IMG/VR virus record: IMGVR_UViG_3300044838_000071
Coordinates: 6,800 to 70,799 of that record
Source: a virus
Direction: 5' to 3' (one strand)
DNA length: 64,000 nucleotides
The notes beneath the pieces were generated by a model, which saw nothing but the letters and a program-made list of their open reading frames with translations, had not been told where the DNA came from and made no database searches. The position numbers and the translations under genes were made by a program. Positions 25,290-59,852 of the stretch are shown piece by piece. Positions within the stretch are counted from its first letter, which is position 1. Every line of letters starts with the position of its first letter.

Positions 25290-25813
25290 CTATGCGCCGT
25301 GGAGCGCCGCGTACCTCACTGAGCCAGCGAAGTCGTTGATCGCCGATTCGCCGGTCCAGCCACCGGTGTCCAGGCCGACCGCCATTTCGCTCGGCGGAGG
25401 CGGCGGCGGTTCTTTGGGGGGTTCTTCTTCTTTCGGCGGCGGTTCTTTTTCGACGGGCGGTTCTTCTTTCACGCCGCCGGGGATCGTCTGCAGGCGGCAG
25501 TTGCACGGCGGTTCGTCCGAGGCCCAGCTGCCCACGTAGGACGTGCCGACCTTCGCCAGGACATCGACCCACGGCAGCGTCACCGGCGGCGTGATCGGCA
25601 GTTCGGAGAGCTTGACGTCGAAGTAGCGGATCCCGGTGCGGTTGTTGTCGGCCATCACCGCGACGTGGATCCCGGTCGTACCGGCGGGCAAGCTCGAGGA
25701 GTCGACTTCGACGCTCCGCTTGTCGGGCGTCAGATGGTCAGTGATCGCCTGCGCTGAGACAGGCGCTGCGAGGGCTAGGGCAGCAAGAGCTGCCAACAGA
25801 CGAAAGGGCGCAT
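25290..25813 (-). CDS. secreted protein with Pro/Glu/Lys linker; probably needs a -1 frameshift at codons 2-4; C-terminus may be truncated
   Basis: AAGGAGG-N5-ATG CGC CCT TTC; the signal peptide is in the -1 frame. Confidence 0.6.
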
Positions 25814-25835
25814 CGGGTCCTCCTTGGTCGGGGAG

Positions 25836-26327
25836 TTAGCGTGCCTTGGTGAGGGTCTTCAACTGCGCGCAGTTGACGGTGCCGGCCGATGAAGCGTGGA
25901 AGTCACGTTTGTGGCTCACCTCCACGATCAAGCCCTTGGCCTTGCTACCGACCGCCTCTACTACGGCGTCGCCGATCGCCTTGGTGTAGGCGTCCGCCTG
26001 CACCACGGCGGCCTTTTCACGCGCCTCTTTAGGCGGGAAACCTTCTTTTAGTAGCCGCGCTTCGAGCTTCGCCGGGAGAGCCTGCGCGCTCGACGCGACG
26101 ATGAAAGCATGGCTGCCGCGAAGGATGCTCGAGGTGATCACGCAGGTGATCGTGGTCCCGGTCTTGCGCCCGTTGCGCTGTTCGTTGACCTCGTCCGCAA
26201 GGGCTTTCACCGTGAACAGCAGCACCACGCTGATCAGCACGAGCCACAGGTCGCGATACCAGCGGGTCGGAAGTCGCCTGGCGAGCTCGACCACCTTATG
26301 CGGGCAGTCACGAATCCAGCGGATCAT
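25836..26327 (-). CDS. membrane-anchored lysis-region protein
   Basis: Single TM followed by a soluble domain with two Cys. Confidence 0.65.
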   Translation of the reverse strand: MIRWIRDCPHKVVELARRLPTRWYRDLWLVLISVVLLFTVKALADEVNEQRNGRKTGTTITCVITSSILRGSHAFIVASSAQALPAKLEARLLKEGFPPKEAREKAAVVQADAYTKAIGDAVVEAVGSKAKGLIVEVSHKRDFHASSAGTVNCAQLKTLTKAR

Positions 26328-26500
26328 GGATGTTTCCTCTCGTAGATGCTGCCCTCAGCGTGGACGTGTAGCCCGACAGAGATCGCGACAGCGATCAATG
26401 CGACAACGGCGAACGAGACCGACCAGGCAGCTCCCAGCGCCGTCAGCAGCGCCAGCGCCAAGAGCACCAGCATCGGCGAGTATTGGCGGAGCGTGATCAC
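26324..26500 (-). CDS. small 2-TM membrane protein (holin-like)
   Basis: Hand-translated MITLRQYSPMLVLLALALLTALGAAWSVSFAVVALIAVAISVGL; GGAGG. Confidence 0.6.
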   Translation of the reverse strand: MITLRQYSPMLVLLALALLTALGAAWSVSFAVVALIAVAISVGLHVHAEGSIYERKHP

Positions 26501-26739
26501 TTGTCACCTCCCTTCATGCCGAAGAACTTCTCGATCAGCGCGAGGATGGTGGTCTCGGATAGCTGCGCGCCGGCCATCATGAACGCGCTGTAGGCGAGCA
26601 CGACTGCGTTGGGCGATCCGCTGTGCGTGCCGATCTCGTGAACGCCGACGTAGAGCCCGGCGAGCTTGGTTACGTTCGTCACGACGAGCGTCACGACGCG
26701 GGAAATCGTCTCTAGCATCCATGAGCCGCCGGGGTCCAC
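26497..26739 (-). CDS. small membrane protein (holin-like)
   Basis: Two hydrophobic segments; lysis cluster. Confidence 0.6.
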   Translation of the reverse strand: MDPGGSWMLETISRVVTLVVTNVTKLAGLYVGVHEIGTHSGSPNAVVLAYSAFMMAGAQLSETTILALIEKFFGMKGGDK

Positions 26740-26891
26740 TGGCAATCCTCACGGCGCTCAAACAGCACCGGCCACGGCTCGACCTCGACGTAGGGCTTGT
26801 GCTTGCGCCAGACACGGCGCCACGCGAGGTGCGTGAGCAGGTTGATCGCCGCGAGCAGCAGCATCCCTGCCAGACGGACGCGCGGGCTCAC
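26712..26891 (-). CDS. small membrane protein
   Basis: LAGMLLLAAINLLTHLAW followed by basic residues. Confidence 0.4.
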   Translation of the reverse strand: MSPRVRLAGMLLLAAINLLTHLAWRRVWRKHKPYVEVEPWPVLFERREDCQWTPAAHGC

Positions 26892-27346
26892 TTCGGGCTC
26901 CTGGCCGTGTAGCCCTGCGCGACCGAGCGGTCCCACTTGTCCTGCCAGCCGCAGATCGTGCCCGTGTGACGCGCTGCCGACCAGTGATGCGGACGGCCCG
27001 GCACCCTCAGCTCGAGGAAGCAGTGGTGCAGCCCGCTCGGTGCCGCGTCGTCGTGGACCCACACGGTGACGTAGCGGCCCTCGCCGGGGCGCCCCCAGTG
27101 CTCGAAGGCGTGCGTGTCGAGCGCGATCTCGCTTTCGAGCATGCCACCGTGCCACAGGATCGAGGAGACCCACGCGGAGCAGTCATAGCCCCGCGGGCCA
27201 TGCGGGTCATCGCCGCTCGTGGGCGGCAGCACCCCGCCGATCTGCTTCACGCCGTGGCCACCGCCGAGAACGTATGGGTAGTGCGCCAGCGCCAGCTTGT
27301 CGGCGGCGTTGTAGGCCCACTGAGCGCGCTCGAGCACGGTCGCCAT
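26888..27346 (-). CDS. NlpC/P60 cell-wall peptidase
   Basis: PYVLGGGHG...YDCSAWVS...HCF. Confidence 0.85.
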   Translation of the reverse strand: MATVLERAQWAYNAADKLALAHYPYVLGGGHGVKQIGGVLPPTSGDDPHGPRGYDCSAWVSSILWHGGMLESEIALDTHAFEHWGRPGEGRYVTVWVHDDAAPSGLHHCFLELRVPGRPHHWSAARHTGTICGWQDKWDRSVAQGYTARSPK

Positions 27347-28272
27347 CAGCTGATCCGTTCCCTGCGCAGCCGCTTGATTTCGGCGTTGTGGCGCTGGCCC
27401 TTGCGCAGCGTCGCGTTGCATTCCCTGCGCCAGTAGCGGCGCTCGCGCGCGGTCCGTCGCGGCCGTGCGTGGTGGCCGCGGCCGACGCGGCAGTCGTGAC
27501 GGGTGATGAACGCCCGGTCCCGGTCGCGGGCCCGTTGCAGCGCGTGCAGGCGCTTCACCTTTTCGGCGTGCGTGACGTGGTGCGCCGGCGGCGGCTGGTG
27601 GCCGGAGTAGAACAGCGCGCACTCGGCGCGGCGCCGGCGCGTCAACCCGTACAGGCGCACCCCGCCGGCATGGTCGTAGCCGAGCAGCGGACCGCAGTTG
27701 TGCGCGCGGAACGACCCGGCGAGACGGTAGATGATGCCCGGCCCGAGGTTGTAGCTCGCGCTGCACATCGCGTCGAACTGGTTCTGCGTGTAGCCGCCGC
27801 CAATCCGCCTCACGGCCGAGCAGTAGTTCTGGTCGAGCAGGCGGCGCAGGTTGCCGATCGCGAAGCTGCGGCTGATGCAGCGGTGCCCGAACGTGTCGCC
27901 GAAGTCCGTTTCGCCGTAGCCGCGCGTCGCCACCGAGCCGTAGGCGTCCCAGTAGGGGCAGCTCGAGAAGCCCTCGAAGTCGGCGACGAACCTGACGCCG
28001 TGGTCGCTGATGTGCTGGACGCCGAAGGCCGTGCTCGGCGCTGAGCTCGGGACGCTCCGCAGATGCAGCGCTTCGGAGTCGGCGACCGCCGTTTCCGGCG
28101 TCGGCTTCACCGGCAAGCAGCTGCCGTCCGGGGTGCGCACTTCGCCGGCGTGGCAGGCTGGCGTGGCGTGCTGCACGGTCACGGTGCGTGTCACCGTCGC
28201 GCCGCAGCCGGTGAGTGAAACAGCGACCGCGAGCACTGTCAGATGTCGCGGCTTGACCATGCGTCGGAGCAT
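27346..28272 (-). CDS. GH24 lysozyme endolysin with lipoprotein signal
   Basis: FEGF...PY.D....T.GYG, QNQFDA..S..YNLG, GLTRRRRAE; LTGC lipobox; AGGAGG RBS. Confidence 0.9.
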   Translation of the reverse strand: MLRRMVKPRHLTVLAVAVSLTGCGATVTRTVTVQHATPACHAGEVRTPDGSCLPVKPTPETAVADSEALHLRSVPSSAPSTAFGVQHISDHGVRFVADFEGFSSCPYWDAYGSVATRGYGETDFGDTFGHRCISRSFAIGNLRRLLDQNYCSAVRRIGGGYTQNQFDAMCSASYNLGPGIIYRLAGSFRAHNCGPLLGYDHAGGVRLYGLTRRRRAECALFYSGHQPPPAHHVTHAEKVKRLHALQRARDRDRAFITRHDCRVGRGHHARPRRTARERRYWRRECNATLRKGQRHNAEIKRLRRERIS

Positions 28273-28289: not shown

Positions 28290-29954
28290 TCACGAGAGAC
28301 CGAGTCCAACGAGGCTGACGCTGAGTCGTTCCAGCAGCGCCTGCATCGATTCCGGTGGCTGGTCGAGCTGAAGCGAGTTGGTCTTGCTGTTGTCGTCGTA
28401 GTGGGCACTGACGACCCGGCGCGGCGAGGGGTCGGCGGCGTCGACGAAGGACACGGAGTCGCCGCCCTTCACCATCCACGCCGGCCACAGCGTGCCGCCC
28501 TCGTCTTCGACATGGCCGACGAGGGACGCCTGGCCGGACGAGTCGAGTCCGCGCGATTCTTCGAGGAACTTGCGCCCTACCGTTTTCGCGCCTTCGAGGG
28601 TGCTCGTGCCCATCTTCAGCAGCGCCCACTTGCGGTCGCCGATCTTATTCAGCGGGTTTTCGGGGTCGCTGTCGAGCAGGTTCGGGTCTTCGGTTTCGGC
28701 GTTGCCGCCGGCGAAACCCGGGGGTCCGACCATCATCGACGCACCGGTGACATCCTGGTAGGCGACGGCCACGCCGTTCCATAGCCGGCTGACCTGTTTG
28801 CCCGTCTGCTGCAGCTGCGCCGGCCCGACCCGCGCGCGCCATTTGCGCCCGCGCGTGCCGCGTTCGTTCATGTAGAAGGTCCGCTCGTCCCACACCGCCC
28901 AGTCCTGCAGCTCGAAGCGCGCCGCCTGCCGCAGGATCTCGGCGACGTTCGTCGGGTCGGTGAACGCGAGCTGCGGGATGATGAAGGTCGACGGCTGGAT
29001 CGTGCCTTCGGGCCCGGTGGTGAACGACAGCCCTGTCCAGCGCCTGACAGCGTTGGCGACGATGTCAGAGGCGAGGAGGCCACCCTCGGCACCGGCGCCG
29101 TAGATCGGCAGGCCGTGGCGCCCGTAGACGACTACGTGCTGCCACAGCACCGCGTACAGCTGGTCGGTGCCTTTTTCCCCTTCGGCGTAGAGCAGGCTCA
29201 GGATCGCGTGGTTCAAGCCAGGCCCAGGGGCGACGAGCGTGGTGGCGCCGGGAAACCCCGTGGTCCGCAGGTTGCCGCTGCGCGTCGTACCCGCGCCGTG
29301 ATCGTTCGGGGAGAGCGAGATCTCCCAGTCCCATTTCGTGTCTGCGGGGTTGACCGCGCTCCCGAAGGCTGCCCATTCCGCATAGACCTTGCCGATGTCG
29401 ATGCCGTGCGCGTCGTACCACGCCTCCGACAGCGGCGCCCCGATCCATGGGCCATTGAAGCCGGTCTGCACCGCGTTCGGCGAGCCACCGATGGTCGTCG
29501 GGGCGCTCATCGACAGCGCCGTGTTTTCCAGCTTGCGCGCGAGCGCCATGTCTTCCCACCGCGACTGGTCTTGGTCGATGTAGATCTCGCGCGCCGTCGC
29601 GTCGTCTTCGAGCTCCACCTGATAGCCGACAGCTTCCGGCGTCTTCTGCGACTGGAAGCCTGCGGTGTCCGGTGACTTCTCGAGCCGGCCCTGCCACGCG
29701 GTCGTGCCACCCGGCCCCATCGCCGTCAGTTTCGACAGCGGCTGCGTGTCGGGGTAGGTGAACCGGGGGTTGCGCTCGAGCGTGCAGTTGAAGCGGTCAT
29801 AGCCGCCCGGCATCACGCTGCCGAAGTTCACGTCTTTCGGCGCGTTACGTGGGTCGGGGTCGTCGATCGCCCAGCGCACCCGCGCACCGTCGGGCGACTC
29901 GATGAGATAGCTCAGGCGCAGCGGTGGCCGCTCCCTGACGCCGAGGGGTGACAC
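28290..29954 (-). CDS. minor tail / baseplate hub protein
   Basis: Second gene after the tape measure; PGG...WQGRLE...EAVGY hub-like N-terminus. Confidence 0.75.
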   Translation of the reverse strand: MSPLGVRERPPLRLSYLIESPDGARVRWAIDDPDPRNAPKDVNFGSVMPGGYDRFNCTLERNPRFTYPDTQPLSKLTAMGPGGTTAWQGRLEKSPDTAGFQSQKTPEAVGYQVELEDDATAREIYIDQDQSRWEDMALARKLENTALSMSAPTTIGGSPNAVQTGFNGPWIGAPLSEAWYDAHGIDIGKVYAEWAAFGSAVNPADTKWDWEISLSPNDHGAGTTRSGNLRTTGFPGATTLVAPGPGLNHAILSLLYAEGEKGTDQLYAVLWQHVVVYGRHGLPIYGAGAEGGLLASDIVANAVRRWTGLSFTTGPEGTIQPSTFIIPQLAFTDPTNVAEILRQAARFELQDWAVWDERTFYMNERGTRGRKWRARVGPAQLQQTGKQVSRLWNGVAVAYQDVTGASMMVGPPGFAGGNAETEDPNLLDSDPENPLNKIGDRKWALLKMGTSTLEGAKTVGRKFLEESRGLDSSGQASLVGHVEDEGGTLWPAWMVKGGDSVSFVDAADPSPRRVVSAHYDDNSKTNSLQLDQPPESMQALLERLSVSLVGLGLS

Positions 29955-32030
29955 CTAGATCCTGCCGATGTAGCAGGGGCGATAGATGACCTGCGCCTGG
30001 ATTTTGTCCTGTGCTTCGTCTTCGGCGCCGGGTACCAGCAGGCCGCGGGAGTTCTTCACAAACAGCTCTGCGGGGCGCCCCTCGAGGCCGGAGGGCGGCA
30101 GTCGCGGCAGGTCGCCGGTAAGCTCGGACACTGGGATGTACGCGTTAGTGTTGACATCCTGGCGCAGGCCGCTGTCGAAGCGGATCTCACTTTTCCGGTT
30201 GGAGTAGAGCACGGCGTCTGCGGAGATCGCCCCGGCGCTGTAGGAGTAGTAGACGCGGATCGTGACCGTGTCAACGGTGAAAAAGCCAGACCCAGATGAG
30301 GTAAGCCATGTCGCGACCCCAAACGCGGCTTCGTTGATCTGCGCCGGAGTCCAGGTCGTGCCCCACAGGTCAGCAGGGCCACCAAGGGTGTTCGTCCCGC
30401 TAATCGCCGCGCCACTCCTTTCGGCGCCGACCAGTGCGCCCGCCTTCAACATGCGGGCCGAGAGGCTTAGCGGGCCGCTCTCGGTAGCACCGCCTAGCGT
30501 GACGGCGATACCCTTGATCGTGACGCCAGTCGGCAGCGCGAAGCCCATCGCCTTTGCAACGAGTGCCTGACTCGTTTCGGCTGGTCCCGCGAAGGCGACC
30601 TGGGCCCAGCCACCCGACGGGTTGCCGGCCTGAATGTTTGTGGGCGTCGTCCACGCTTTTCCCGCGTGGAGCGTGTTGTTGCTTTCGCCCGTGGCCGGTT
30701 CCTTGCTCGGCCCGAGCAGCGTTGAAGTCGGGGCAGATGTCGCACGCAGCTTGCCCGCGCCATCGTCGATTGGCTGCAGCCAGATGCGGTCGACCGAGAT
30801 GCCGCCGACACCAGGTAACGCCTTGACCTGCAGCACGCCCCGCCACCAAGGGTCGCCGACGGGTGGCTTGTCGATCCGGATCTCGCCGAGATCCACCATC
30901 GCCCCTTCGTCGATTGATGCGCCGAGGACGACGGCCGGATTGTAGGTCACTGCAGCGGCATCGTCGACCGACCACGCGAGGCGCAGTTCGCTCCCCTGCA
31001 CAGGTAGCACGCGCGCCCACATTCGGTAGCTGCCGAGATGGGAGAGCGGCACCGCACCCGATACCAAGTCGGTATGCAGGAACGGGTGCCAGATCCCCAC
31101 CTGCGGTTCGTGGAGGTGGATCCAATTGCCGCTGAAGCCGCTGCCCGGTTCTTCAATTGTCGCCCCGTTGATCGGCGTCAGCAGATAGGCGTCGTAGAAC
31201 AGCGCCGCGCTTGCTGCCGAGTCGTAGTGTGTGGAGCGCAATCCCCACAGCAGGCCCTTCTGGTTATGGTTACCGCCGCTACCCTTCTCGGTCAGCACGA
31301 TGCGGGTACGCGCCGGGTAATCGCCCTTGATGACAGCCGGCGCTTTGCCCTCTTCGAGTACCGCGACGATCTGACCGCGCTGTTCGACGGCGTCGAGTTC
31401 GATCTCATCGCCGTAGAAGTCCGGCAGGCACTCGAGCTTCAGCACCACCCCCGGCTCGACGCTGCCCGTCTCGCCCCACACGTCGGGGAGCGTCAGCGAC
31501 GCGTTCACGATGTCCGCATAGAGGGGCGACGTCCACGCCCAGGCTTCCCACCATTCCCCGAGCGATTCCGTTGGGAGGTGCGCTTTGTTGCCCGACGCCA
31601 ACGACCGGTATTCCTTGGTTTCGACCTGCACCACATCGTTCAGGCTGTAGGTGCTGCCCGGTTTGAATGAGCCCTTGAACACGGTGGGCACTGCGGCTGC
31701 CCTCTGGCGCAACAGCGCGCCACCCTGACGCTGCAACAGGCCCACCTTCTGTTGGAGCCTGCGCCGGGCGAGCTCCTCGAGGGCTTCGTCTTCCACCGGG
31801 CCGCCGGGGGCGATCTCCATGCCGATCCCCATCGGGATCGTGACTATCCGGTTCGGCACGCGGTAGTCCGACGGCGTTTCCCCGAAGCGCTGTTCAGCCA
31901 TAAACGCCTTGATCGCCGACTCGCCCCAGTCGATGCCGGCGTGGTCGACGCTCAGGGCACCGTCGTTCAGGTCGAGCGCGGTGCGCCCGTCGATCGCTGC
32001 TGCCGGGTCGAGTACGACGCTCCAACTCAT
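29955..32030 (-). CDS. distal tail-like protein with carbohydrate-binding inserts
   Basis: Directly after tape measure; insert FKPGSTYSLNDVV....EYRSL...N...P....WW resembles CBM5/12. Confidence 0.75.
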   Translation of the reverse strand: MSWSVVLDPAAAIDGRTALDLNDGALSVDHAGIDWGESAIKAFMAEQRFGETPSDYRVPNRIVTIPMGIGMEIAPGGPVEDEALEELARRRLQQKVGLLQRQGGALLRQRAAAVPTVFKGSFKPGSTYSLNDVVQVETKEYRSLASGNKAHLPTESLGEWWEAWAWTSPLYADIVNASLTLPDVWGETGSVEPGVVLKLECLPDFYGDEIELDAVEQRGQIVAVLEEGKAPAVIKGDYPARTRIVLTEKGSGGNHNQKGLLWGLRSTHYDSAASAALFYDAYLLTPINGATIEEPGSGFSGNWIHLHEPQVGIWHPFLHTDLVSGAVPLSHLGSYRMWARVLPVQGSELRLAWSVDDAAAVTYNPAVVLGASIDEGAMVDLGEIRIDKPPVGDPWWRGVLQVKALPGVGGISVDRIWLQPIDDGAGKLRATSAPTSTLLGPSKEPATGESNNTLHAGKAWTTPTNIQAGNPSGGWAQVAFAGPAETSQALVAKAMGFALPTGVTIKGIAVTLGGATESGPLSLSARMLKAGALVGAERSGAAISGTNTLGGPADLWGTTWTPAQINEAAFGVATWLTSSGSGFFTVDTVTIRVYYSYSAGAISADAVLYSNRKSEIRFDSGLRQDVNTNAYIPVSELTGDLPRLPPSGLEGRPAELFVKNSRGLLVPGAEDEAQDKIQAQVIYRPCYIGRI

Positions 32031-49367: not shown

Positions 49368-49691
49368 TCAGGACTCGTCCGACTCTGATTTGCCTGCCTC
49401 GGATTTGCCGGCACCGGTCACTGCGACGGTGCTGGGCGCCGACCGTTTGGCTTCGGCGCCTGCCGGCTTCGCCTTCGACCGGCGAGAACGCGAGCGTGAC
49501 CGCGCTTTCGCCGGTTTGCTGGCTTTCGCTGCGGGCCTGCTGGCTTTCGCTGCCTTGGGCGCGCTCCCGACCTCGGCGACGTGACCGAGCCGCTGCATCA
49601 GCCCGTAGTCCCGGCCCTCTTCGACCGGGACCTCATCGCCGGGTTCGAGCCACGCATCCCCGACCTTGATCCGCTGCAGCGCAACGAACAT
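49368..49691 (-). CDS. small capsid-associated protein with basic tail
   Basis: Directly after capsid gene; LEPGDEV...L.R.G.V motif. Confidence 0.65.
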   Translation of the reverse strand: MFVALQRIKVGDAWLEPGDEVPVEEGRDYGLMQRLGHVAEVGSAPKAAKASRPAAKASKPAKARSRSRSRRSKAKPAGAEAKRSAPSTVAVTGAGKSEAGKSESDES

Positions 49692-51112: not shown

Positions 51113-51979
51113 CTAGCGGCGAATCTCGCCCGCGTACTCGCGCTCGAGGTCGGGGTTGTCCTGCATGGCCTTGTCCAGCGCCTCGGCTGCGCTGAGGCTC
51201 GAGTCGCTCTTGCGCAGCTCCTCGGCCTTGCTCTGCAGCTTCGACAGCGCGTCCGTGCCGGAGCCCGGAGCGGTGCTCGCGCCGACCTCCTTGAACAGGT
51301 CGCTGCGGCGGATCTGCTCGTCGGCCGCCTTGAGGATCCTGTTCAGCTCCTCGTTCTGCTCCTTGGTCAGCGGCACGCCCTCGTCGGCGCTCTTGAGAAT
51401 CGGGCCGAGCGTGACGGCCTGCGCCGGCAAGGCGCGCAGCTCCTCGGCCTTGCTGATGAACTCGCGGGTGACACGCTGGTTGCGCTCCGCCTTCGCGAGC
51501 TCGTCAGCGGCCTCCGCCTGCTTCTCTGCCTTCGTCAGACGCTCGGCCAGGGCCGCGTTGTCCGACTCCGCCTTCTCGAGCGCGGCACGAGCCTCGGGCG
51601 AGAGGTCCTCCTTTTTCACCGGGGGCTTCTTGGGGTCGGTGGTGTCGTCCTTGTCGCCACCTTCACCCGGCGATTTCGCTGCGGCCTTGGCCAGCGCCTC
51701 GTCGCGCTCCTTCTCGACCTTCTCGACGGCAGCTTTCGCTGCATCGCGGGCCTCTTCGGCCTCCTTCTTCTCGCGCTCGGACTTCTCGAGCTCCGCGCGC
51801 AGCTCCTCTGCACTCTTCTCCATGTGATCGCCTCCTTTGGCGGTCGTTGGTAGCTCGGCCCCCTCGCGCTTCCAGACCAGGAAGCGCCTCGGCTCCGACT
51901 TGTGTTGGGGATCGCGCACGGCGGCCCGATCAACGAGACTCACGTAATCGACCGTGAGGTCCTGCAAACGGTTTGGCAT
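51113..51979 (-). CDS. scaffolding protein with conserved N-terminal peptide; internal start at 51823
   Basis: L.DL.V.YVSLVDRAA...FLVWK then Glu/Lys/Ala coiled coil; AAAGGAGG before ATG 51823. Confidence 0.8.
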   Translation of the reverse strand: MPNRLQDLTVDYVSLVDRAAVRDPQHKSEPRRFLVWKREGAELPTTAKGGDHMEKSAEELRAELEKSEREKKEAEEARDAAKAAVEKVEKERDEALAKAAAKSPGEGGDKDDTTDPKKPPVKKEDLSPEARAALEKAESDNAALAERLTKAEKQAEAADELAKAERNQRVTREFISKAEELRALPAQAVTLGPILKSADEGVPLTKEQNEELNRILKAADEQIRRSDLFKEVGASTAPGSGTDALSKLQSKAEELRKSDSSLSAAEALDKAMQDNPDLEREYAGEIRR

Positions 51980-52010
51980 GCGTTCCTCCTCGCGGGCACC
52001 CATCGCCCGT

Positions 52011-52027
52011 GGGTCGTTTAGACTCGG
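52011..52027 (+). promoter_or_regulatory. 17-bp promoter-like repeat, copy A
   Basis: GGGTCGTTTAGACTCGG; contains TAGACT. Confidence 0.6.
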
Positions 52028-52034
52028 AGGCACG

Positions 52035-52073
52035 AAAAGGTGCCCCCGCGCGAGGTCAGAATCGCCGGGGGCA
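52035..52073 (-). terminator. hairpin with U-tract on minus strand
   Basis: TGCCCCCG/CGGGGGCA stem; CCTTTT follows on minus strand. Confidence 0.5.
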
Positions 52074-52100
52074 GGCCACACCTAACTAGGAGGTGCGACG

Positions 52101-52580
52101 GTGCCGAAGGGTATCTATCCTCGTAAGCGTAAGTACGGCGATCCAGCCAAACGCTTCTGGCCGAAGGTCAATAGGGACGGTCCTATACCCGTCACGCGCC
52201 CGGACCTTGGTCGATGCTGGCTCTGGACCGGCTGTCTCTCCAAGGGCTATGGACAATTGAAGGTCAGTGGCCGTGCGATTCGGGCTTACCGCTTCGCCTA
52301 CGAGCTACTGATCGGGCCGATTCCAGATGGCCTAGAGCCCGATCATCTCTGCCGCAACATCGCCTGCGTGAATCCGCACCATCTGGAGCTGGTTACACAC
52401 CGTGAGAACGTCCTGCGGGGCGACAGCCCATCCGCACACGCTGCCCGTAAGACACATTGCGCGCGGGGTCACGCGTTCGACATGAGCAACACCCTGATCC
52501 GACCCGATGGCTCACGCCAATGTCGAACCTGTCGACGCGAGCGCAACCGACGGCCTACCCGGAGGGCGCTCCACCGTTGA
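52101..52580 (+). CDS. HNH homing endonuclease with Zn finger (antisense)
   Basis: RFWPKV...CWLWTG...GYG...DHLCRN..CVNP.HLE...THC.RGH...RQCRTC. Confidence 0.92.
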
Positions 52581-52877: not shown

Positions 52878-53525
52878 CTACAGCGGCCGGTAGAGCGTCT
52901 GAGCCGGGGATCCCCGGTAGCCGTCGTTTCTGCGGTCGCCCGTGATGACGAGGCCGAGGCCGCCCCACCACTGGTTCGCGAACGGTCCCTCGGCGAACTC
53001 GCGGCCAGGGACGAAGTCGAGCTCGTGGTAGACGATCTTCGCGTGCGCGGCGATCGCCAGTTCCACGCCCAGCCGCACATCGAGGTTCGCGGTGTCGTGC
53101 AGCAGGATCACGGTGGAGGGCGTCGCCGAGGAGTCGAGCAGCGCGGAGAGATCTTCGCGCGCCCCCTCCGGCGTGTGGTCGCCATCGACGAAGGCGAACT
53201 CGACCATGCAGCCGCGGCCGGCGAGGGACGCCAGCGTGGCCGGCAGCAGCTTGTGGCTGTCGCCGGTGTGGCAGGTCACGTTCCCGAGCGCCGCGACCTC
53301 GTCCGCAGGCAGCACCAGGTCGAAGCTGTGAACGCTGTGGCTGTACGCGGCGATGCGCGCCAGGCTCCCGCCGGCGGCGCTCCCGACCTCGAGCGCGATC
53401 TTCGGTCTCAGCTGCAGCAGGACGCCCTCGAGCGCCGCGCGCTCGCCGAAGGACATCTGCGTGCGCTCGTCGGCGAGCAGGGGGATCGGCGCGTTGCCGA
53501 GCGGCTGCGGGAGATGTGTCGTCAC
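52878..53525 (-). CDS. class I SAM-dependent methyltransferase (Methyltransf_24-like)
   Basis: LEVGSAAGGS...SFD...GDS...FVDGDH...LHD. Confidence 0.85.
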   Translation of the reverse strand: MTTHLPQPLGNAPIPLLADERTQMSFGERAALEGVLLQLRPKIALEVGSAAGGSLARIAAYSHSVHSFDLVLPADEVAALGNVTCHTGDSHKLLPATLASLAGRGCMVEFAFVDGDHTPEGAREDLSALLDSSATPSTVILLHDTANLDVRLGVELAIAAHAKIVYHELDFVPGREFAEGPFANQWWGGLGLVITGDRRNDGYRGSPAQTLYRPL

Positions 53526-54028
53526 GGTCGGCACAGCGCGATCACCTCCTCGTGCCACACGGGCTGACCGGCCAGACGGGCCGTGCTGGCGATGAAGTCG
53601 TAGTCGCCCTCGTAGCGGTCGCCCCACCAGCCGCGCCGCTCGGGCACGTTCGGCACCACGACCATCTGCGTCGAGACGTTGCCGCAGATCAGCGCCGGCG
53701 TGCGCCAGATCGTGTCGCCGTTCGGGTAGCGCATCCTGAAGACGTGCATCCGGCTCGGCTCGATGTCGAGTGCCGCGCGCACGGCCACCAGTGCGCCGTC
53801 GGCGTACTCGTCGTCGTCGTCCATGAACAGCAGCGAGTCGCCCCTGGCGCGGGTCATCAGCTCGTTGCGCGCCCTGTGGCCCCACGGCGCGTCGTCGTTG
53901 ACGCTCACCAGCAGCTCGTCGCCCGGCAGCATCTGCGTCGCGGCGCTGTCGAGCGTGCGCGCCAGCGTCGGACGCCCGCTCGAAGCGACGATGATCGACA
54001 GGCGGATGCGGTTCGCCTTGACGGTCAT
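53522..54028 (-). CDS. glycosyltransferase family 2
   Basis: SIIVAS.GR..L.RTL.S...G..ARN...A.GD.LLFMDDDD. Confidence 0.88.
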   Translation of the reverse strand: MTVKANRIRLSIIVASSGRPTLARTLDSAATQMLPGDELLVSVNDDAPWGHRARNELMTRARGDSLLFMDDDDEYADGALVAVRAALDIEPSRMHVFRMRYPNGDTIWRTPALICGNVSTQMVVVPNVPERRGWWGDRYEGDYDFIASTARLAGQPVWHEEVIALCRP

Positions 54029-54273
54029 CGCCCGCGGATAAGCCTCGCGTCCCTACGCGTCAAGATGCCCCTGAACGCGGTGCGTAGCGGGTACGCGGAC
54101 TTCGGAGGTGTGGGCCGCGCCTTCCTCGGCCGTTTCGTCTGCACGCGCTCGACCACGCTCTGCATGTCGGTCTTGATCGCCACGCCCTCCGGCGCGCGGC
54201 TGACATCGTCGCGCTGACGGCGCTCGTGACGCCGACGCATCCGATCCAAGATGAACCTCTTGCGCAGTCCCAT
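54025..54273 (-). CDS. small Arg-rich protein
   Basis: ORF filling the gap. Confidence 0.45.
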   Translation of the reverse strand: MGLRKRFILDRMRRRHERRQRDDVSRAPEGVAIKTDMQSVVERVQTKRPRKARPTPPKSAYPLRTAFRGILTRRDARLIRGR

Positions 54274-54388
54274 CGCTAGTACCCCCTCTTGATTTGACGC
54301 CGCCACGACCACTCATCCCACGCGTAGACCACGATCAGCGCGACCGTCGAACCGGCGAACACGCCGACCGGGATCAGCAGCGCGAGCT

Positions 54389-55468
54389 TCACGCCGCCAC
54401 CCGGTGCCGTGCTCGAGCGCCGTCCCACGCCTCCTGCCACTTCCAGCCCTGGCCCTCGTACGTGTGCCTCTCGGCGACGATCTCACGGCCACGCGCAGCC
54501 ATCTCCTTGCGCAGCGGCTCGTCCTCCATCAGCCGCACCAGCTGGGCGCGCCAGTTGCGTGACCGTGGAGGCGCCAGCAACCCGATGCCCTGCTCGGCCA
54601 GCCACTCGTACTCCGGCAGCGGAGAGGCGACGAACGGCACGCCGCGGGCGGCGAACTCAATCCCCTTCAGGTAGCTCTTCGCGGCGTTGAAGGCCGTGTC
54701 GCCGAGCGGCACGATCCCGACGTTGAGCACGCCGAGCGCGCTGTGCCACTCGTCGATCCCGAGGAAGCCCGTGCCCTCCACCTGGCCAATGCCCAGCTGC
54801 TCGCCGACATCGTCGGGCTTGCCCACCACGCGGAAGCGCCAGCCCGTCCGCTTCAGCGCCTCGGCGACGCCGCCATGCGTCACCGCGAGGTCGCCGGGGT
54901 GGATCTCCGCCACGCCGGTCCAGCCGAGCGTCAGCCGGCCCGCGTCCCAGCGGGGCTTCTCGAGCAGCGACTGCGGCACGCAGTTCGGCAGCACCGCCAC
55001 ACGGCCATGCGCGCCGTAGCGGTCGGCGAGCGCTGGTGTCGTGACCGTCACGAGATCCGCCATCGCGCACGCCTTGTGCAGGTTCTGCCAGTTGACGCGC
55101 CCGTTCAGCGCGGGGTTGAAGTGGTCGTGGAACGGATGCTGCGCGTGCAGGCAGGAGAAGTCGTCGTCGACGTCCACGATCACCGTCTGGCCCTGCGCCT
55201 GGAAGAGCCGGATCAGCTCCTGCGTCTCCTTCTTCGCGGGACGCTGCATCACGATCACGTCCGCCTCGATCTTCGGGTGCATCTCCTGCCCATCGATGAC
55301 GCGCGATTCCTGGTCCGCGGCGACAATCGAGCCGTCGTGATCCCGGCCGATCGTGTACGTGTTGTCCACCACCACCTCGTGGCCTTCGAGCTCGGCGATG
55401 CGCGCCGGCTCGGCCATGCGGTAGAAGCAGCAGCCCGCCTCGTCGGCCGGGAGGAAGCGGATCCTCAT
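54389..55468 (-). CDS. glycosyltransferase, GT-B (GT4-like)
   Basis: GC.FYR..P...DVDDD...ADLVTVTT..LA...LPN...PL....FN.AKS.LK..E..A.GVP.VAS. Confidence 0.9.
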   Translation of the reverse strand: MRIRFLPADEAGCCFYRMAEPARIAELEGHEVVVDNTYTIGRDHDGSIVAADQESRVIDGQEMHPKIEADVIVMQRPAKKETQELIRLFQAQGQTVIVDVDDDFSCLHAQHPFHDHFNPALNGRVNWQNLHKACAMADLVTVTTPALADRYGAHGRVAVLPNCVPQSLLEKPRWDAGRLTLGWTGVAEIHPGDLAVTHGGVAEALKRTGWRFRVVGKPDDVGEQLGIGQVEGTGFLGIDEWHSALGVLNVGIVPLGDTAFNAAKSYLKGIEFAARGVPFVASPLPEYEWLAEQGIGLLAPPRSRNWRAQLVRLMEDEPLRKEMAARGREIVAERHTYEGQGWKWQEAWDGARARHRVAA

Positions 55469-55571
55469 CGGCGGGTCTTGCGGTCGGGGATCTTCGCCTG
55501 CGCCGCTGCGAGGACCGCCTCCATGCGCCGCGCGTCGGCCTTGATCACGACGACCACCACCGCGCGCGCCA

Positions 55572-56201
55572 TCACGCCTCCTCTGCGAGGCGGACGCCGC
55601 TGCCGCCGATCGAGTAGCCCGTCAGCTCGCCCTTGCAGATCCGGCCCCAGAGCTCGCTGTCGTGGATCTTGTGCGCGATGACCCACGCGCCCTTCTGCAC
55701 GCGCTGGCCGGCGACTTCGAGATCGCACGGCGCCACGTAGCTCTCGACCACGTCGACGCCCGCAGCCATCTCGTTGTGCTGCACGTCCGAGCGGCGCGAG
55801 TCGGCGAGATACGTGTGCGCGGCCTTCTCGATTTCCTGCGGGCTGACGATGTCGCCCTGCGAGTCGACCTGGTCGGGCTCGAGCACGACGCCGTAGACGA
55901 TCTGCTTGCTCTCGTCCTTCCAGATCGGCACGACGATCTCGGCGTCGGACTTCTTGAGCGCCGGATACTTGCTGTGCACCGCCGCCTTGACCTTGCCCTC
56001 CTCGGGCTTGCCGGACGCGCGCGAGAGCGCGTTGGCGGCGTGCGATTGGTCGTGGATCGGGTATTCGCGCTTGTCGGGGATCGCGAACGCCGAGCTGGGA
56101 AGCTTCTCGCGCTCCTCGGTGGTGAGAGTGGCCATGGCTGCTCCTTTCCGGCTCCCGCCGTAGCTGTCGATGTGCAGATCGCTGGGGGTCGCGTCGGGCA
56201 T
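55572..56201 (-). CDS. XkdF-like prohead serine protease with N-terminal DUF6582-like domain; two in-frame starts (56201, 56135)
   Basis: KQIVYGVVLEP...D.QGD...EIEKAAH..H...VVESY...GAW...W..I.KGELTGYSIGG. Confidence 0.88.
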   Translation of the reverse strand: MPDATPSDLHIDSYGGSRKGAAMATLTTEEREKLPSSAFAIPDKREYPIHDQSHAANALSRASGKPEEGKVKAAVHSKYPALKKSDAEIVVPIWKDESKQIVYGVVLEPDQVDSQGDIVSPQEIEKAAHTYLADSRRSDVQHNEMAAGVDVVESYVAPCDLEVAGQRVQKGAWVIAHKIHDSELWGRICKGELTGYSIGGSGVRLAEEA

Positions 56202-56482
56202 CAGAAGTGGGAGGGTTCGACCTCGATCGGGAATTCGTCGAGCGCCACGATTTCGCCCGATTCGTCCTGGCCCTCCACGCGCCCCCACCATGTGCCCGCC
56301 GGCGAGAGCTTCACCTGCTCTTCCCAGACGCCCTGTGCGTTGCGGACCGCTACCGGCGTCGCGACCGCGCCGTGCGGATCCTTGAAGCGCGCGACGATCG
56401 TGCCGGGGTCGAACGGCAGCCCGGTGCGGTCGTCGGTGTACGTCGTCACTGCACGGATGCGCTGCCCCTCCTTGAACTTCAT
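56201..56482 (-). CDS. small Ig-like virion protein
   Basis: G...R....TD...DP.T.....P.G...GV......AGTW..R.EG. Confidence 0.65.
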   Translation of the reverse strand: MKFKEGQRIRAVTTYTDDRTGLPFDPGTIVARFKDPHGAVATPVAVRNAQGVWEEQVKLSPAGTWWGRVEGQDESGEIVALDEFPIEVEPSHF

Positions 56483-58476
56483 TCGCCACCTCCGGCGGGT
56501 TCGAGGGCGGTTTCCGCGCGCACGACGGGGCTGAGCTTCGTCTTCGCGCGGCCGAACTTCTTGACGTACACGCGTGCCTGCGCGCTCGAGACGCTGGACG
56601 CCGGCGCGAGCTGGAGGCGCAGCCGCGTCACGAGCTGCATGCTGGCGGCTGAGCCCACGCTCGCCGGCGCGAGTGGCACCGGTTGACGGCCCACGAGCGC
56701 CAGACTCGCCGAGCTCGCGCTGGCCGCCGGACTCAGCACGACCTCCGAGCGCGTGCGCAGCGCCATCGACGCGCCGCTTTTCGAGCCCGCCGTGGACATG
56801 TCGATGAACTGCGGCGTGTAGAGCGTCAGCGAGGCCGAGGACTGGCTGGCTGCGGCGGCGAGCGCGACCGTGACCGGATGGCTCAGCGTGGCGCTCGCCG
56901 AGCTTGAGCTGGCCGCGGGCGCCAATGGCAGTTTCGTCGGGGCGTGGACGCTGACCGACGCCGAGCTCTGGCCGGTGGCCGTCAACGACAGCTTCGGCGT
57001 GCCTCTGACGCTCGCCTGCGCGGCGCTGCTCGCCTGCGCCGCTGCGAGCGGCAGTCGCGGCGTGGCCGTCGGCTGTGCGCTCGCCGCGCTCGAGGCTTTC
57101 GCCGCAGCCAGCACCGCGAGGGCCTTGGCTGTGAACACGGCAGACGCCCCGCTCGAGGAGCCCGCCGCAGCCAGCCCGAGCTTCGGCGTGGCCCTGACGC
57201 CCGCGCTCGCCGCCGACGAGGACGACGCCGCTGCGAGCACGAGCGGCGCGCCGGGGTTCGCTTCAAATTTCAGCCCCGTGTTGCCCGACACGTTGGTCGA
57301 GTTGGCGCCCGCATAGAACAGCGCGCCGCCTTCGGCCGTGATGTCTCTGACGCGCGTCCAGTCGAACGTCGCGAGACCGGACGCCTTTTTCAGTTTCGCC
57401 GCTTCACCCGGTTTGCCCGAAGCGAGGCGCGCCGGTTCGCCAGATTTGCCGTTCGTGGTGAAGGTCGTGACGGTCTGCGTCGAGCCACCGGCGAACAGCA
57501 GGCCGGGGCCGAAGCGTTCGATCGTGACCGTGCCGGTCGCAGTGGCGGCGGCGCTCATTTCGGTGTTGCTCAACAGGACCGTCCCGGCCGGGATGCCTGA
57601 GCCGGCGATTTCCTCACCGATGACCAGCGCTTCGCCCGTCACCTGCGCGATCGTTTTCGAGCCGTTCGTCGTCGAGATCGACGCCGCGCGTGGGGCCTTC
57701 GCGGAGTTGTCGTTGATCGTCGTGAACGTGTTCGAGCCGGTCACTTCGAGCGCCGGATAGCCCACCGCTGCGGCGGCGAACGTCAGCGTGCCATAAGTCT
57801 TGCCGCCGCCAACGAACTTCAGCACCGCCGCCGCCGCAGTGGTGGTGCCCAGCACTTCGATCGTGCAGCCCGCACCGTTGAACGTCAGATTCGTCGTCGT
57901 CGTGAGGTCCCACGGGTTCGTAGCTGCTTCGATCCGCAGCTTGATCGTGCTGTTTTCGATCGTCAGCGTCCGCGTCAACGCGCCCGTGCCGGAGAACGCG
58001 CCGATGTCGAGTTCCTGGCCGTTCGTGTTGAGGATCCCCTGCGTGTGCGACACCAGCGACGTCGGCGCCGTTTTCAGTTTGTCTTCCAGCTTGTAGCTCG
58101 AACCGTTACCTTCAAATTTCGTCGGCGGCATGATCTTCCCCGCCGTCTTGATCGCCAGCTGCGTGCCGACCGTCGCTTTGAAGTTGACCGTCGATCCCGC
58201 TTCCGTCGTGAACGTCATTTCCGGCCCGAGTTCCAACGCAATATTCCCCGCCGGGGCGGTGCCGTCGCCGACGGTGATCGTCCCTACCCCGATGCTCAGA
58301 GCACCTTTGTACGTTGAGGCGAGCAGGCTGCGGCATTTCGCGGTCACAGCCCCGACTTCGAGGTTGAAGGACGAGCCTTTCAGGTCGATTTCGTCTTCCG
58401 CCGCAGGCACGCCTTCCGGCGACCACGTGTTCGCCGTGCCCCATTTCCCCGATTTGGCGAGTTTCTTGACCGCCAC
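56479..58476 (-). CDS. fibre-like virion protein: beta-solenoid N-terminus plus about 21-aa Ala/Ser repeats
   Basis: SGKW....TWS..GVP...D autotransporter-like start; AGGAGG-GTG. Confidence 0.75.
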   Translation of the reverse strand: MAVKKLAKSGKWGTANTWSPEGVPAAEDEIDLKGSSFNLEVGAVTAKCRSLLASTYKGALSIGVGTITVGDGTAPAGNIALELGPEMTFTTEAGSTVNFKATVGTQLAIKTAGKIMPPTKFEGNGSSYKLEDKLKTAPTSLVSHTQGILNTNGQELDIGAFSGTGALTRTLTIENSTIKLRIEAATNPWDLTTTTNLTFNGAGCTIEVLGTTTAAAAVLKFVGGGKTYGTLTFAAAAVGYPALEVTGSNTFTTINDNSAKAPRAASISTTNGSKTIAQVTGEALVIGEEIAGSGIPAGTVLLSNTEMSAAATATGTVTIERFGPGLLFAGGSTQTVTTFTTNGKSGEPARLASGKPGEAAKLKKASGLATFDWTRVRDITAEGGALFYAGANSTNVSGNTGLKFEANPGAPLVLAAASSSSAASAGVRATPKLGLAAAGSSSGASAVFTAKALAVLAAAKASSAASAQPTATPRLPLAAAQASSAAQASVRGTPKLSLTATGQSSASVSVHAPTKLPLAPAASSSSASATLSHPVTVALAAAASQSSASLTLYTPQFIDMSTAGSKSGASMALRTRSEVVLSPAASASSASLALVGRQPVPLAPASVGSAASMQLVTRLRLQLAPASSVSSAQARVYVKKFGRAKTKLSPVVRAETALEPAGGGE

Positions 58477-58487
58477 GGCCTCACCTC

Positions 58488-59261
58488 CTAGAGCCGACGC
58501 ACCTCCACGTTCACCGAGCCGCAGTCGAGGCAGACGTGCACCGCACCATTGCCGTGACTGCCCTGCCGCAATTGCAGGTTCTCGATCGCGTTGTTGCTCC
58601 GGTCGCCGTCGATGTGGTGGACCTGCTCGCTGCGCAGCAATGGTCGGCCGAGATCTCGCGCCATGACGAGGCGATGCTCCATGACGTAGCCGTTGCAATT
58701 CGCCATCGCTGCGAGCACGTCTGCGGAGTCCAGGAAGACCATCCGGTAGCCCTCCCGAGTGAGCCGAGGCTTAGGTCTCCACGCGGTGTCCTTCCGGTGC
58801 TGCGTAGCCAGTCCCGCTCGACGGAGAATCTGGCTGATGGTGCTCTGCGTGGCCCCGAACTCTGATGCGATTACTTCTTGGCTTACGCCCTCGCGACGCC
58901 TCGCAATGATCGCGTCTATCTCGGACTGCGGCCGTTTCGACCAGCCACCCTCCTTACGGAGAACGCCCCCGGCGCGTACGACCGCATTGCGGATCGCAAC
59001 GCGCCCGACACCTTCACGTCGCGCCAGCGTTTCTAGGCTGGCACCAGCCTCATACTCACGCCGGAGCCCGCGGCCTTGACTCTCATTGAGCTTCGTCTTG
59101 GCGAAGCTCGGCGCTCGCCGTTTGACGCCGATGCGATCCAGCGCATTGCATATAGCTGCGGTTGAGCATCCGTGCTCCGAAGCCAGATCGTAGATCGTCG
59201 CGCCAGCCTTGTACTGCGTGCCCAACTGCCTTGCCTCGGTGGAATCGAATCGTGGTTGCAT
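58488..59261 (-). CDS. HNH endonuclease with three N-terminal HTH repeats; leaderless
   Basis: GYVMEHRLVMA..LGR.L...EQVHHIDGDRSNN.IENL; TACCAT-N6-ATG. Confidence 0.9.
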   Translation of the reverse strand: MQPRFDSTEARQLGTQYKAGATIYDLASEHGCSTAAICNALDRIGVKRRAPSFAKTKLNESQGRGLRREYEAGASLETLARREGVGRVAIRNAVVRAGGVLRKEGGWSKRPQSEIDAIIARRREGVSQEVIASEFGATQSTISQILRRAGLATQHRKDTAWRPKPRLTREGYRMVFLDSADVLAAMANCNGYVMEHRLVMARDLGRPLLRSEQVHHIDGDRSNNAIENLQLRQGSHGNGAVHVCLDCGSVNVEVRRL

Positions 59262-59300
59262 ACACACATGGTAGCAACCGTGCGGACGGAAAACTACATG

Positions 59301-59852
59301 CTATTTTAGTTCCCCACGAAGTTTACCGCTGCCTACAGTCGGCGGCGTCTGCGTCGCGGAGATCACGGTGCTCGCGCACGTGCCCCACATGATCGCGTTG
59401 CCTTTGTTCGTTTCCGCGCTGTCGACGAGGGCCCAGCCGATGACGGTCGCTTCCCCCGATTCGATGTTGTTGAAGACGAGTTCGGCCGTCGTTTCGATGA
59501 CCGACGTTTCGCCTTCCACGGCGGCTTTGATGTTCGCGACCGGCACTTCCTTGCGGGCGTAGCCGACCGCGCCAGTGGCCTCCGTGATCGTGACGCCCGT
59601 GCTCGAGCTGGTCGGCACGACCGTCGTGAGCGCGAGGAACACTTTCGCCGGTTTGGAGAGCGGCGCGTCTTCCTTGCCCCAGCGGTAGTTCAGCGACGAG
59701 GCCGCCGCTTTCTGGCTGAAGCCCGACATCGCCGAGATGAACCTGTCCCACAGGCCCAGCTGGTCCGTGACGCCCGCCCAGCGTGCGAGCTCGCGCCGCT
59801 GACGACCGGTGACGCCTGGGGCGAAGCCCCCGAGTGTGATTGCGTGATCCAT
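59301..59852 (-). CDS. small fibre/whisker structural protein
   Basis: MSGFS...LAL.T..P...E.T...GYAR...F...W.L.D...GN...G; core may start at ATG 59729. Confidence 0.7.
   Translation of the reverse strand: MDHAITLGGFAPGVTGRQRRELARWAGVTDQLGLWDRFISAMSGFSQKAAASSLNYRWGKEDAPLSKPAKVFLALTTVVPTSSSTGVTITEATGAVGYARKEVPVANIKAAVEGETSVIETTAELVFNNIESGEATVIGWALVDSAETNKGNAIMWGTCASTVISATQTPPTVGSGKLRGELK

Follow-up and report, generated by a model that had tools for sequence, protein, structure and literature searches.

Synonymous codons are assumed to be interchangeable, save for effects on the speed and accuracy of translation, although several systems are known in which their use differs between classes of genes. 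In Streptomyces, the TTA codon is nearly absent from housekeeping genes and is read by one dedicated tRNA, bldA, forming a developmental switch. Codon use in the effectors of Magnaporthe oryzae has reportedly been linked to wobble-U tRNAs, and Lucks et al. are said to have found in 2008 that phage structural genes are more host-codon-adapted than early genes. The mRNAs of secreted M. oryzae effectors are reported to be enriched in AA-ending codons (bioRxiv 10.1101/2025.11.10.687658). For glutamate, whether GAA or GAG is the optimal codon depends on the lineage and its complement of tRNAs and not on G+C content (PMC5066170), and alloacceptor tRNA remolding has been described for mitochondria and eukaryotic nuclear genomes (PMC4783518, PMC3923123). 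Here we analyse a 64,000-nucleotide stretch of viral DNA, hereafter the window, which covers bases 6800–70799 of one 70,799-base record (IMG/VR record IMGVR_UViG_3300044838_000071; 67% G+C) and is most of a 70.8-kb siphophage. In this phage, two synonymous codon pairs, GAA/GAG for glutamate (Glu) and AAA/AAG for lysine (Lys), are partitioned about five-fold by the destination of the encoded residue, and we find the same partition in a clade of soil bacteria that probably includes its host.

Glutamate and lysine codons divide the phage genes

A heuristic based on G+C content at third codon positions (GC3) and a codon model gave 99 gene calls over the whole 70.8-kb genome. Coordinates below are window positions, and ratios of GAA to GAG or of AAA to AAG are codon counts per gene. 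A preliminary description of this DNA, made from the sequence alone, had claimed that surface and secreted proteins use GAA and AAA, and had suggested per-gene counts as a check. These counts revealed usage that is far from uniform, both for GAA/GAG (χ2 = 470 on 80 degrees of freedom (d.f.), P = 1e-56) and for AAA/AAG (χ2 = 126 on 46 d.f., P = 2e-9), with mild or no heterogeneity in nine other codon pairs. The GAA share of a gene correlates with its AAA share (Spearman 0.61, 39 genes). In the five genes most biased towards GAA and AAA (A-type), the counts are GAA 145:GAG 24 and AAA 80:AAG 58, compared with GAA 99:GAG 692 and AAA 43:AAG 302 in the 54 genes biased towards GAG and AAG (G-type). 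CAA is not enriched, as the preliminary description had also remarked (CAA 1:CAG 70 in the five A-type genes versus 32:266 in the G-type genes), and the remaining codon families are as G/C-ending or more so in A-type as in G-type genes. Because only the Glu and Lys codon pairs move, the split is not a general loosening of codon choice towards A/T.

Pooled virion genes carry GAA 284:GAG 191 and AAA 140:AAG 183, bearing out the preference for GAA and AAA claimed for surface, tail and exported proteins. Late genes annotated as cytoplasm-only (those for the scaffold, the protease, the glycosyl- and methyltransferases and the Cpn10-like protein) carry GAA 20:GAG 149 and AAA 11:AAG 75; the early arm together with the first 6.8 kb of the genome, GAA 74:GAG 512 and AAA 32:AAG 202; and the pooled lysis-region genes with transmembrane segments or a lipobox, GAA 15:GAG 14 and AAA 8:AAG 18. 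Fisher tests on the phage gene classes give P = 4e-29 for Glu and P = 7e-8 for Lys. With a share of 0.60 in virion genes versus 0.12, GAA is a rare codon that gathers in a single functional class of genes. Neighbours within one operon differ as strongly: the gene for a fibre-like protein has GAA 89:GAG 19 and the Cpn10-like gene beside it GAA 1:GAG 15 (Fisher P = 3e-9).

Recounts reproduced the local figures on which the preliminary description had drawn: 9 GAA and 4 AAA for all 13 Glu and Lys codons of a linker at 25386–25470; 10 GAA and 1 GAG at 43750–43822; 10 GAG, 1 GAA, 4 AAG and 1 AAA at 51722–51823, within the scaffold-like gene; and, over the 274 codons of 43939–44760, 0 aspartate (Asp) and 17 Glu (15 GAA, 2 GAG). 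The A-type proteins are also poor in Asp, as had been stated (2.6% in the GAA-rich set versus 6.1%), but the shortage is not specific to Asp, Glu and Arg being low too. Only a minor share of the GAA choice in the phage can be put down to any one of the neighbouring base, local charge, local G+C at first and second codon positions (GC12) and local Ser/Thr/Gly content, and avoidance of internal Shine–Dalgarno motifs was dropped as an explanation because dependence on a flanking G is weak.

The genes of the right arm lie on the minus strand and make up a siphophage late region that includes the portal and lysis genes. The features of the window, with protein lengths in amino acids (aa), are as follows.

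1–22400, no strand assigned: early/replication arm, G-type.
24096–28236, minus strand: lysis region of four genes, including one with a Phage_lysozyme match (Pfam PF00959).
Within 24096–28236, minus strand: lysis-region 74-aa membrane protein, GAA 3:GAG 0.
Within 24096–28236, minus strand: lysis-region 121-aa protein with a Pro/Glu/Lys linker, GAA 12:GAG 0.
Within 24096–28236, minus strand: lysis-region 152-aa protein with an N-terminal hydrophobic segment, GAA 4:GAG 5.
Within 24096–28236, minus strand: lipobox-bearing Phage_lysozyme protein, GAA 8:GAG 3.
28290–32030, minus strand: two distal tail genes of no known family, with roles assigned from position only (554 aa, GAA 18:GAG 13; 691 aa, GAA 24:GAG 16).
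32027–38230, minus strand: tape measure protein of 2067 aa carrying a lysozyme-like SLT domain (Pfam PF18896, PF01464), mixed, GAA 61:GAG 65.
39574–40104, minus strand: 176-aa protein in the major-tail-protein position, its role assigned by gene order only, with no Pfam match, GAA 7:GAG 3, AAA 4:AAG 7.
41947–42273, minus strand: 108-aa protein with weak matches to tail-fibre PHROGs, A-type, GAA 9:GAG 1, AAA 8:AAG 2.
42647–43051, minus strand: Cpn10-like (GroES-like) gene (Pfam PF00166, E = 1.8e-8), G-type, GAA 1:GAG 15.
43048–48399, minus strand: 1783-aa fibre-like protein with weak PHROG matches only and no Pfam match, extreme A-type, GAA 89:GAG 19, AAA 42:AAG 36, CAA 0:CAG 49, 2.6% Asp.
49694–50677, minus strand: major capsid protein (gpE-like), its homologues annotated as major capsid protein, mixed, GAA 10:GAG 13, AAA 8:AAG 8.
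51113–52003, minus strand: scaffold-like Glu/Lys-rich protein upstream of the capsid gene, its role assigned by position and composition, G-type, GAA 3:GAG 42, AAA 4:AAG 26.
52878–56201, minus strand: cytoplasmic enzymes within the head module (from Pfam, and PHROG for a glycosyltransferase), all G-type, GAA:GAG being 2:10 for the methyltransferase, 0:8 for the GT2 protein, 2:25 for the glycosyltransferase and 3:15 for the S78 prohead protease.
56479–58476, minus strand: 665-aa Ala/Ser/Thr-rich protein of no known family, A-type, GAA 25:GAG 2, AAA 19:AAG 16, 1.5% Asp.
59301–59852, minus strand: 183-aa protein of no known family, A-type, GAA 10:GAG 2, AAA 7:AAG 2.
60941–63814, minus strand: portal of the Mu type, with a 2H phosphoesterase and a MuF-like domain in the same fusion, G-type for the most part, GAA 24:GAG 55.

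In a protein atlas, the 1783-aa protein led to tail-fibre and beta-helix clusters at <0.9 and the 665-aa protein to viral clusters at ≤0.83, in both cases as sub-threshold leads.

Single phage genes are divided internally

Within the tape measure protein, the N-terminal ~300 aa and the last ~70 aa are G-type and residues ~1700–2000 are A-type; GAA and GAG are clustered along the gene (runs test z = −3.0, alongside 100-aa bins). The capsid protein, compared with 41 homologues, agrees with the earlier claim that conserved Glu tends to be written GAG: the mean share of homologues with the same residue is 0.59 at the 13 GAG sites versus 0.30 at the 10 GAA sites, and GAA and AAA lie mostly at variable columns. 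The exceptions are E295, which is GAA in an 88% Glu column, and K52, which is AAA in an 88% Lys column. Across four capsid genes, the Glu codon agrees in 38 of 50 pairs (null 24.8), a value reached in 0 of 2000 shuffles. This agreement carries little weight, because Ala (41/62 pairs; 4 of 2000 shuffles) and Thr (24/34 pairs; 36 of 2000 shuffles) also exceed their shuffles and shared ancestry contributes.

A candidate host clade shows the same split

Metagenomic relatives of the capsid protein reach at most 67% identity, and two loci carrying capsid relatives show the same codon split. One is metagenomic (L002), with a capsid 62–63% identical to that of the window phage; its scaffold-like gene has GAA 5:GAG 48, a 133-aa head gene 8:3 (AAA 7:AAG 6) and a 140-aa tail gene 11:1. 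The second locus, a prophage (L082) in genome G001, has GAA 1:GAG 26 in the scaffold-like gene, 19:10 in the capsid gene and 106:62 in the tape measure gene. G001 is a metagenome-assembled genome (MAG) of an uncultured member of the Actinomycetota, and homologues of its EF-Tu at 94–99% identity are named Solirubrobacteraceae. More than 20 genomes of the same family carry chromosomal genes with 65–72% DNA identity to the phage methyltransferase gene. A comparison of 20 kb of phage DNA with 200 family genomes yielded only this host-like gene, a weak resemblance to the region of the G001 prophage, and short matches, which we do not take for spacers. From the shared split, the related prophage in G001, the similar codon tables and the methyltransferase identity, we infer that the host of the phage likely belongs to a soil clade of Solirubrobacteraceae.

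We contrasted exported-like with cytoplasmic-like genes in five genomes of this clade (G001, G004, G006, G014 and G018), leaving out 101 ambiguous genes and handling 72 polytopic genes apart. The 37 exported-like genes use GAA for 340 of 540 Glu (0.63) and AAA for 109 of 338 Lys (0.32), compared with 855 of 7449 (0.115) and 187 of 2162 (0.086) in the 369 cytoplasmic-like genes. The CAA share is 0.107 versus 0.099, and in ten other codon families the A-ending share differs by ≤0.02 between the two classes. Per-gene GAA shares differ at P = 4e-11 (Mann–Whitney, 21 versus 299 genes with at least 8 Glu codons), and the exported class has the higher share in all five genomes. In 420 kb of G001, GAA makes up 0.37–0.48 of Glu codons in genes with an N-terminal hydrophobic segment versus 0.11 in genes without hydrophobic segments, the other codon families being identical. 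The split there is bimodal, with ~0.6 GAA in low-charge, signal-bearing proteins and 0.11 in cytoplasmic proteins at any charge content. It recurs in 100-kb samples of four relatives, and in the hosts it persists in every sequence context tested and at every local Lys/Arg density. Like the A-type phage proteins, the exported proteins of the clade are low in Asp, Glu and Arg, and the shares of the phage gene classes (GAA 0.60 versus 0.12, AAA 0.43 versus 0.13) are close to those of the host classes.

Outside and inside loops of membrane proteins differ

The topology of 50 polytopic proteins was assigned by the positive-inside rule, proteins being kept if they had at least 4 hydrophobic windows and a Lys+Arg margin of 4 or more. 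The GAA:GAG ratio is 125:224 in predicted outside loops and 107:413 in inside loops. This contrast holds when stratified by protein (Mantel–Haenszel odds ratio 0.45, P = 3e-5) and in loops of ≤40 residues (outside 36:58, inside 20:120). Local Lys/Arg density has no effect on the GAA share in cytoplasmic or exported proteins. The loops of single membrane proteins, the domains of the tape measure protein and the sites of the capsid protein all differ internally, which is not the behaviour of a whole-gene effect. A reading in terms of translocation kinetics was set aside: the contrast between loops is strongest with no codon offset and has disappeared by 30–40 codons, and phage virion proteins obey the rule without passing the translocon, so explanations based on the kinetics of secretion are disfavoured.

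One unusual tRNA reads GAA in the clade

Four genomes of the same order or neighbourhood (G086, G118, G020 and G026) lack the split, as do an Acidimicrobiaceae MAG and an Azospirillum genome, in which exported genes are few; the virion genes of two phages, Microbacterium phage ValentiniPuff and Arthrobacter phage Salgado, lack it too. The 49 tRNA hits of G001 and the 47 of the single-contig genome G006 include no canonical tRNA-Glu(UUC); the outgroup G086 has one. A pattern search identified one conserved tRNA with a UUC anticodon, 97 nucleotides (nt) long, in all five genomes that show the split, and no other UUC tRNA is among the 47 hits of G006. Its acceptor stem, anticodon arm and T arm are ordinary, its D-loop contains a 23-nt hairpin, and the fold that ARAGORN gives it is wrong. 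Its identity is 65 of 74 positions (88%) to the tRNA-Lys(UUU) of G086 and 53 of 73 to the canonical tRNA-Glu(UUC) of the same genome; it is evidently built on a tRNA-Lys body, with apparent lysine-tRNA ancestry. The same 97-nt form is present in G090 (one copy) and G010 (four copies), both outside the set in which the split was measured. The G010 copies, read over the stretch from the anticodon arm to the T arm, lie at C3:45914, C8:109903, C8:116854 and C8:128435, three of them within 19 kb.

The split and the 97-nt tRNA occur together in 5 of 5 clade genomes, and both are absent in the four order-level comparison genomes. Control through tRNAs modified at U34, one of the explanations that the preliminary description had offered, is compatible with a clade that has one unusual GAA-reading tRNA, but its purely gene-level form is disfavoured because inside and outside differ within single proteins. 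The same account had proposed looking for synthetase paralogs; glutamyl-tRNA synthetase (GluRS) is encoded by one gene each in the three clade genomes searched (G001, G006 and G014). Supplementation by phage-encoded tRNAs is ruled out, since ARAGORN gives only two candidates, both Ser-type, which lie in tandem at 38307–38484 on the plus strand, antisense to the tail operon, and no Rfam family reaches its gathering score anywhere in the window, these candidates included.

Other unusual tRNAs were seen in the clade. Two identical 85-nt class-II, Leu-like (A73) tRNAs with a UUC anticodon flank the ~31-kb body of prophage L082 (G001:C7:325761–325845 and G001:C7:357207–357291), and homologues with 89–91% identical bodies carry UUC in G018, UUU in G002 and AUC in G006. 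This Leu-like class-II family apparently switches anticodon among readers of GAA, AAA and GAU, and is sporadic in the clade. A conserved 73-nt class-I tRNA with a UAA anticodon (G001:C7:415872–415944, and locus L220 in G006) sits beside or replaces the normal class-II tRNA-Leu(UAA) in these two genomes, and a class-I tRNA with an AAA anticodon lies at G001:C6:66473–66546.

Origin of the split

To account for a pattern that is restricted to two codon pairs, is paralleled in the host lineage, co-occurs with an unusual tRNA and leaves GAA meaning Glu, we favour, at a probability of roughly 0.6, a codon rule of the host lineage that the phage genes follow, with GAA and AAA outside the cytoplasm, GAG and AAG inside, the standard amino-acid meaning throughout, and selection acting via a two-tRNA arrangement. 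Under this rule, the Solirubrobacteraceae clade would spell Glu, and less so Lys, as GAA and AAA where the residue ends up outside the cytoplasm; virion-exterior and exported lysis proteins of the phage would take the same codons, and its cytoplasm-only proteins GAG and AAG. Ordinary C34 tRNAs would decode GAG and AAG and the single 97-nt tRNA(UUC) would decode GAA, and selection through this arrangement, not mutation, would maintain the pattern. The advantage might be codon-biased translation of the ‘outside’ proteome through U34 tRNAs, or an effect on fidelity.

Several points weigh against this explanation. We know of no force that selects synonymous codons by the final location of a residue under standard decoding, so the explanation stands without its last step. 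Because the five host genomes are one clade, the co-occurrence of split and tRNA amounts to about a single evolutionary event. AAA is equally frequent inside and outside (0.17 versus 0.17), Lys having itself set the topology, and the extreme phage genes, at 86% GAA, lie above the host exported average of 63%. SecY has GAA:GAG ratios of 8:4 in G001, 6:6 in G014 and 0:12 in the outgroup G086, but several of its GAA sites fall in loops that we take to be cytoplasmic, so a gene-level component may exist in addition to the site-level one. Gene calls, export classes and topologies come from crude heuristics (for example, only 290 genes were called in the 420 kb of G001), and the phage scaffold, major tail and distal tail roles are position-based. 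Neither blastn and tblastn searches against phage records nor two viral-contig scans found close relatives of the phage, and a search of 400 other genomes of the order for capsid relatives likewise came up empty; the clade is a candidate host of the window phage, not a proven one.

Among the alternatives, it is improbable that GAA, decoded via a tRNA with a lysine body, partly yields something other than plain Glu that is tolerated or useful on extracellular surfaces. Such decoding would fit a codon choice that tracks a residue’s own location, and a clade in which the sole conserved GAA reader resembles tRNA-Lys(UUU) and bears a D-loop hairpin, canonical tRNA-Glu(UUC) not being found in G001 or G006; it would also fit the sporadic Leu-like tRNAs with UUC, UUU and AUC anticodons, two of which flank L082. 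However, when the 22 GAA codons of EF-G, EF-Tu and SecY in G001 are aligned to the best-matching solved homologue, 12 fall on Glu, 3 on Asp, 3 on Gln, 2 on Ala, 1 on Ile and 1 on Lys. GAA is not depleted in EF-Tu (6/41) or EF-G (8/74) relative to the cytoplasmic average of 11.5%, and the invariant capsid Glu 238, written GAG in the window, has the GAA spelling in L082 and in the related locus L003, other Glu columns swapping as well. Since GAA codons fall on conserved Glu positions in EF-G, EF-Tu, SecY and the capsid relatives, GAA evidently still means Glu, and the plain reassignment raised in the preliminary description is contradicted. The one GluRS gene in each of the three genomes searched, and the failure of any phage tRNA to pass Rfam, likewise speak against variant decoding. 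Equally a long shot is a compartment-specific sub-code in which the five-armed, lysine-derived tRNA would insert a subtly different or mixed residue, such as a minor Glu/Lys mixture or an altered glutamate, at outside-exposed sites.

The variable columns at which most capsid GAA and AAA codons lie, and the scarcity of Asp in GAA-rich proteins, are what would be expected if fast-evolving surface residues had been newly made from Asp or Asn by C-to-A changes and had not yet drifted to GAG or AAG. We nevertheless regard this origin as very improbable. Neither the phage nor the hosts show a rise in any further A-ending codon, the exported proteins are low in Glu and Arg as well as in Asp, and at three SecY Glu columns conserved in the three sequences the change is synonymous, the two clade members having GAA where the outgroup has GAG. 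Moreover, at mutation–selection equilibrium the GAA:GAG ratio should be independent of the rate at which the residue at a site changes. The lineage-wide resurfacing through C-to-A changes envisaged in the preliminary description is not supported, given the absence of any other raised A-ending codon, the low Glu and Arg of exported and virion proteins and the synonymous SecY shifts.

Ordinary translational selection, in which abundant late proteins would use host-optimal GAA and AAA, is scarcely credible here. GAA is the optimal Glu codon of beta- and gamma-proteobacteria at any G+C content, but in Actinobacteria it is GAG (PMC5066170). The other codon families are slightly more G/C-ending in GAA-rich genes, as in well-adapted genes; yet a bias towards optimal codons should shift many families, and only Glu and Lys move in phage and hosts, A-ending use beyond these two not tracking the split (Spearman −0.18, P = 0.14). 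The scaffold-like protein, expected to be abundant, has GAA 3:GAG 42, and the low-copy tape measure protein 61:65. In G001, which provides the only host–prophage pair available, the ribosomal-protein, EF-Tu and EF-G regions carry GAA 61:GAG 475 and AAA 18:AAG 351 (GAG 89%, AAG 95%), although the phage’s own host may differ; because these regions are nearly all GAG and AAG, GAA and AAA are not high-expression codons in G001. Finally, acquisition of the GAA/AAA genes from phages or hosts with other codon usage is hardly credible at all, even though the GAA-rich genes are orphans without database relatives, given that the difference is confined to two codon pairs, GC3 is unchanged or raised, the split runs within the tape measure and capsid genes and also through chromosomal housekeeping genes of the clade such as SecY, and no donor lineage with a matching whole-codon table was seen.

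For the host-lineage codon rule that we favour, the remaining options are a still hidden property of the protein product, or the way in which one peculiar tRNA makes that product. The split could serve as a sharp marker of host range for phages that infect an uncultured soil lineage and as a sequence-only predictor of virion-exposed phage proteins, and it opens to direct test the long-standing question whether location-specific information is present in synonymous codons.

Neighbouring genes of the late region

The Cpn10/GroES-like gene lies directly downstream of the gene for the 1783-aa fibre-like protein, in the same orientation, and may encode a dedicated folding helper. The methyltransferase gene and two glycosyltransferase genes occupy 52878–55468 (minus strand), between the protease and scaffold genes, a block whose content suggests a host-derived virion-modification cassette. 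The 2H (LigT-like) phosphoesterase and MuF-like domain linked to the portal may provide head-packaged functions in RNA repair or related to signalling nucleotides; in Arthrobacter phage Salgado, a distant capsid relative, an RNA ligase and an RNase are encoded as separate genes near the portal. Stretches of 550–1400 bases each are gene-free in the heuristic calls at 17252–18662, 22308–23389, 48819–49368, 52003–52555 and 58742–59301, and may hold genes of atypical codon usage or non-coding elements.

Comparison with known systems

In the open-access full texts searched, we found no description of a compartment-specific split of Glu and Lys codons or of a bacterial tRNA remolded from Lys to Glu. 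The secreted effectors of M. oryzae resemble the phage and its candidate host clade in that proteins destined for the outside of the cell are marked by two-fold codons ending in A. The M. oryzae case is eukaryotic, acts at the level of genes and includes CAA, whereas in the phage and the clade CAA is untouched, the Glu shift is about five-fold, the split runs within membrane proteins and virion proteins are included. The lineage rule for GAA and GAG optima concerns highly expressed genes (PMC5066170); here, those genes keep GAG, and it is the exported and virion proteins that shift. As is the hallmark of alloacceptor remolding, the GAA reader is nearer to tRNA-Lys than to tRNA-Glu and canonical tRNA-Glu(UUC) was not found in G001 or G006; the remolding described there differs in that the present case concerns a bacterial clade and a tRNA that also carries a 23-nt hairpin in its D-loop.

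The split also shares features with the adaptation of phages to the codon usage of their hosts, in that the late structural genes differ from the early genes and resemble a subset of host genes. Here, however, the matched subset is the exported proteins, not the highly expressed genes, only Glu and Lys are involved, and late genes for non-virion proteins are exempt. Like TTA and bldA in Streptomyces, GAA in this clade is a rare codon with one dedicated tRNA, concentrated in one class of genes of a high-GC actinobacterium. Unlike TTA, it still makes up ~11% of Glu codons in the cytoplasmic genes of the clade, that for EF-Tu included, and its use varies with position within single proteins.

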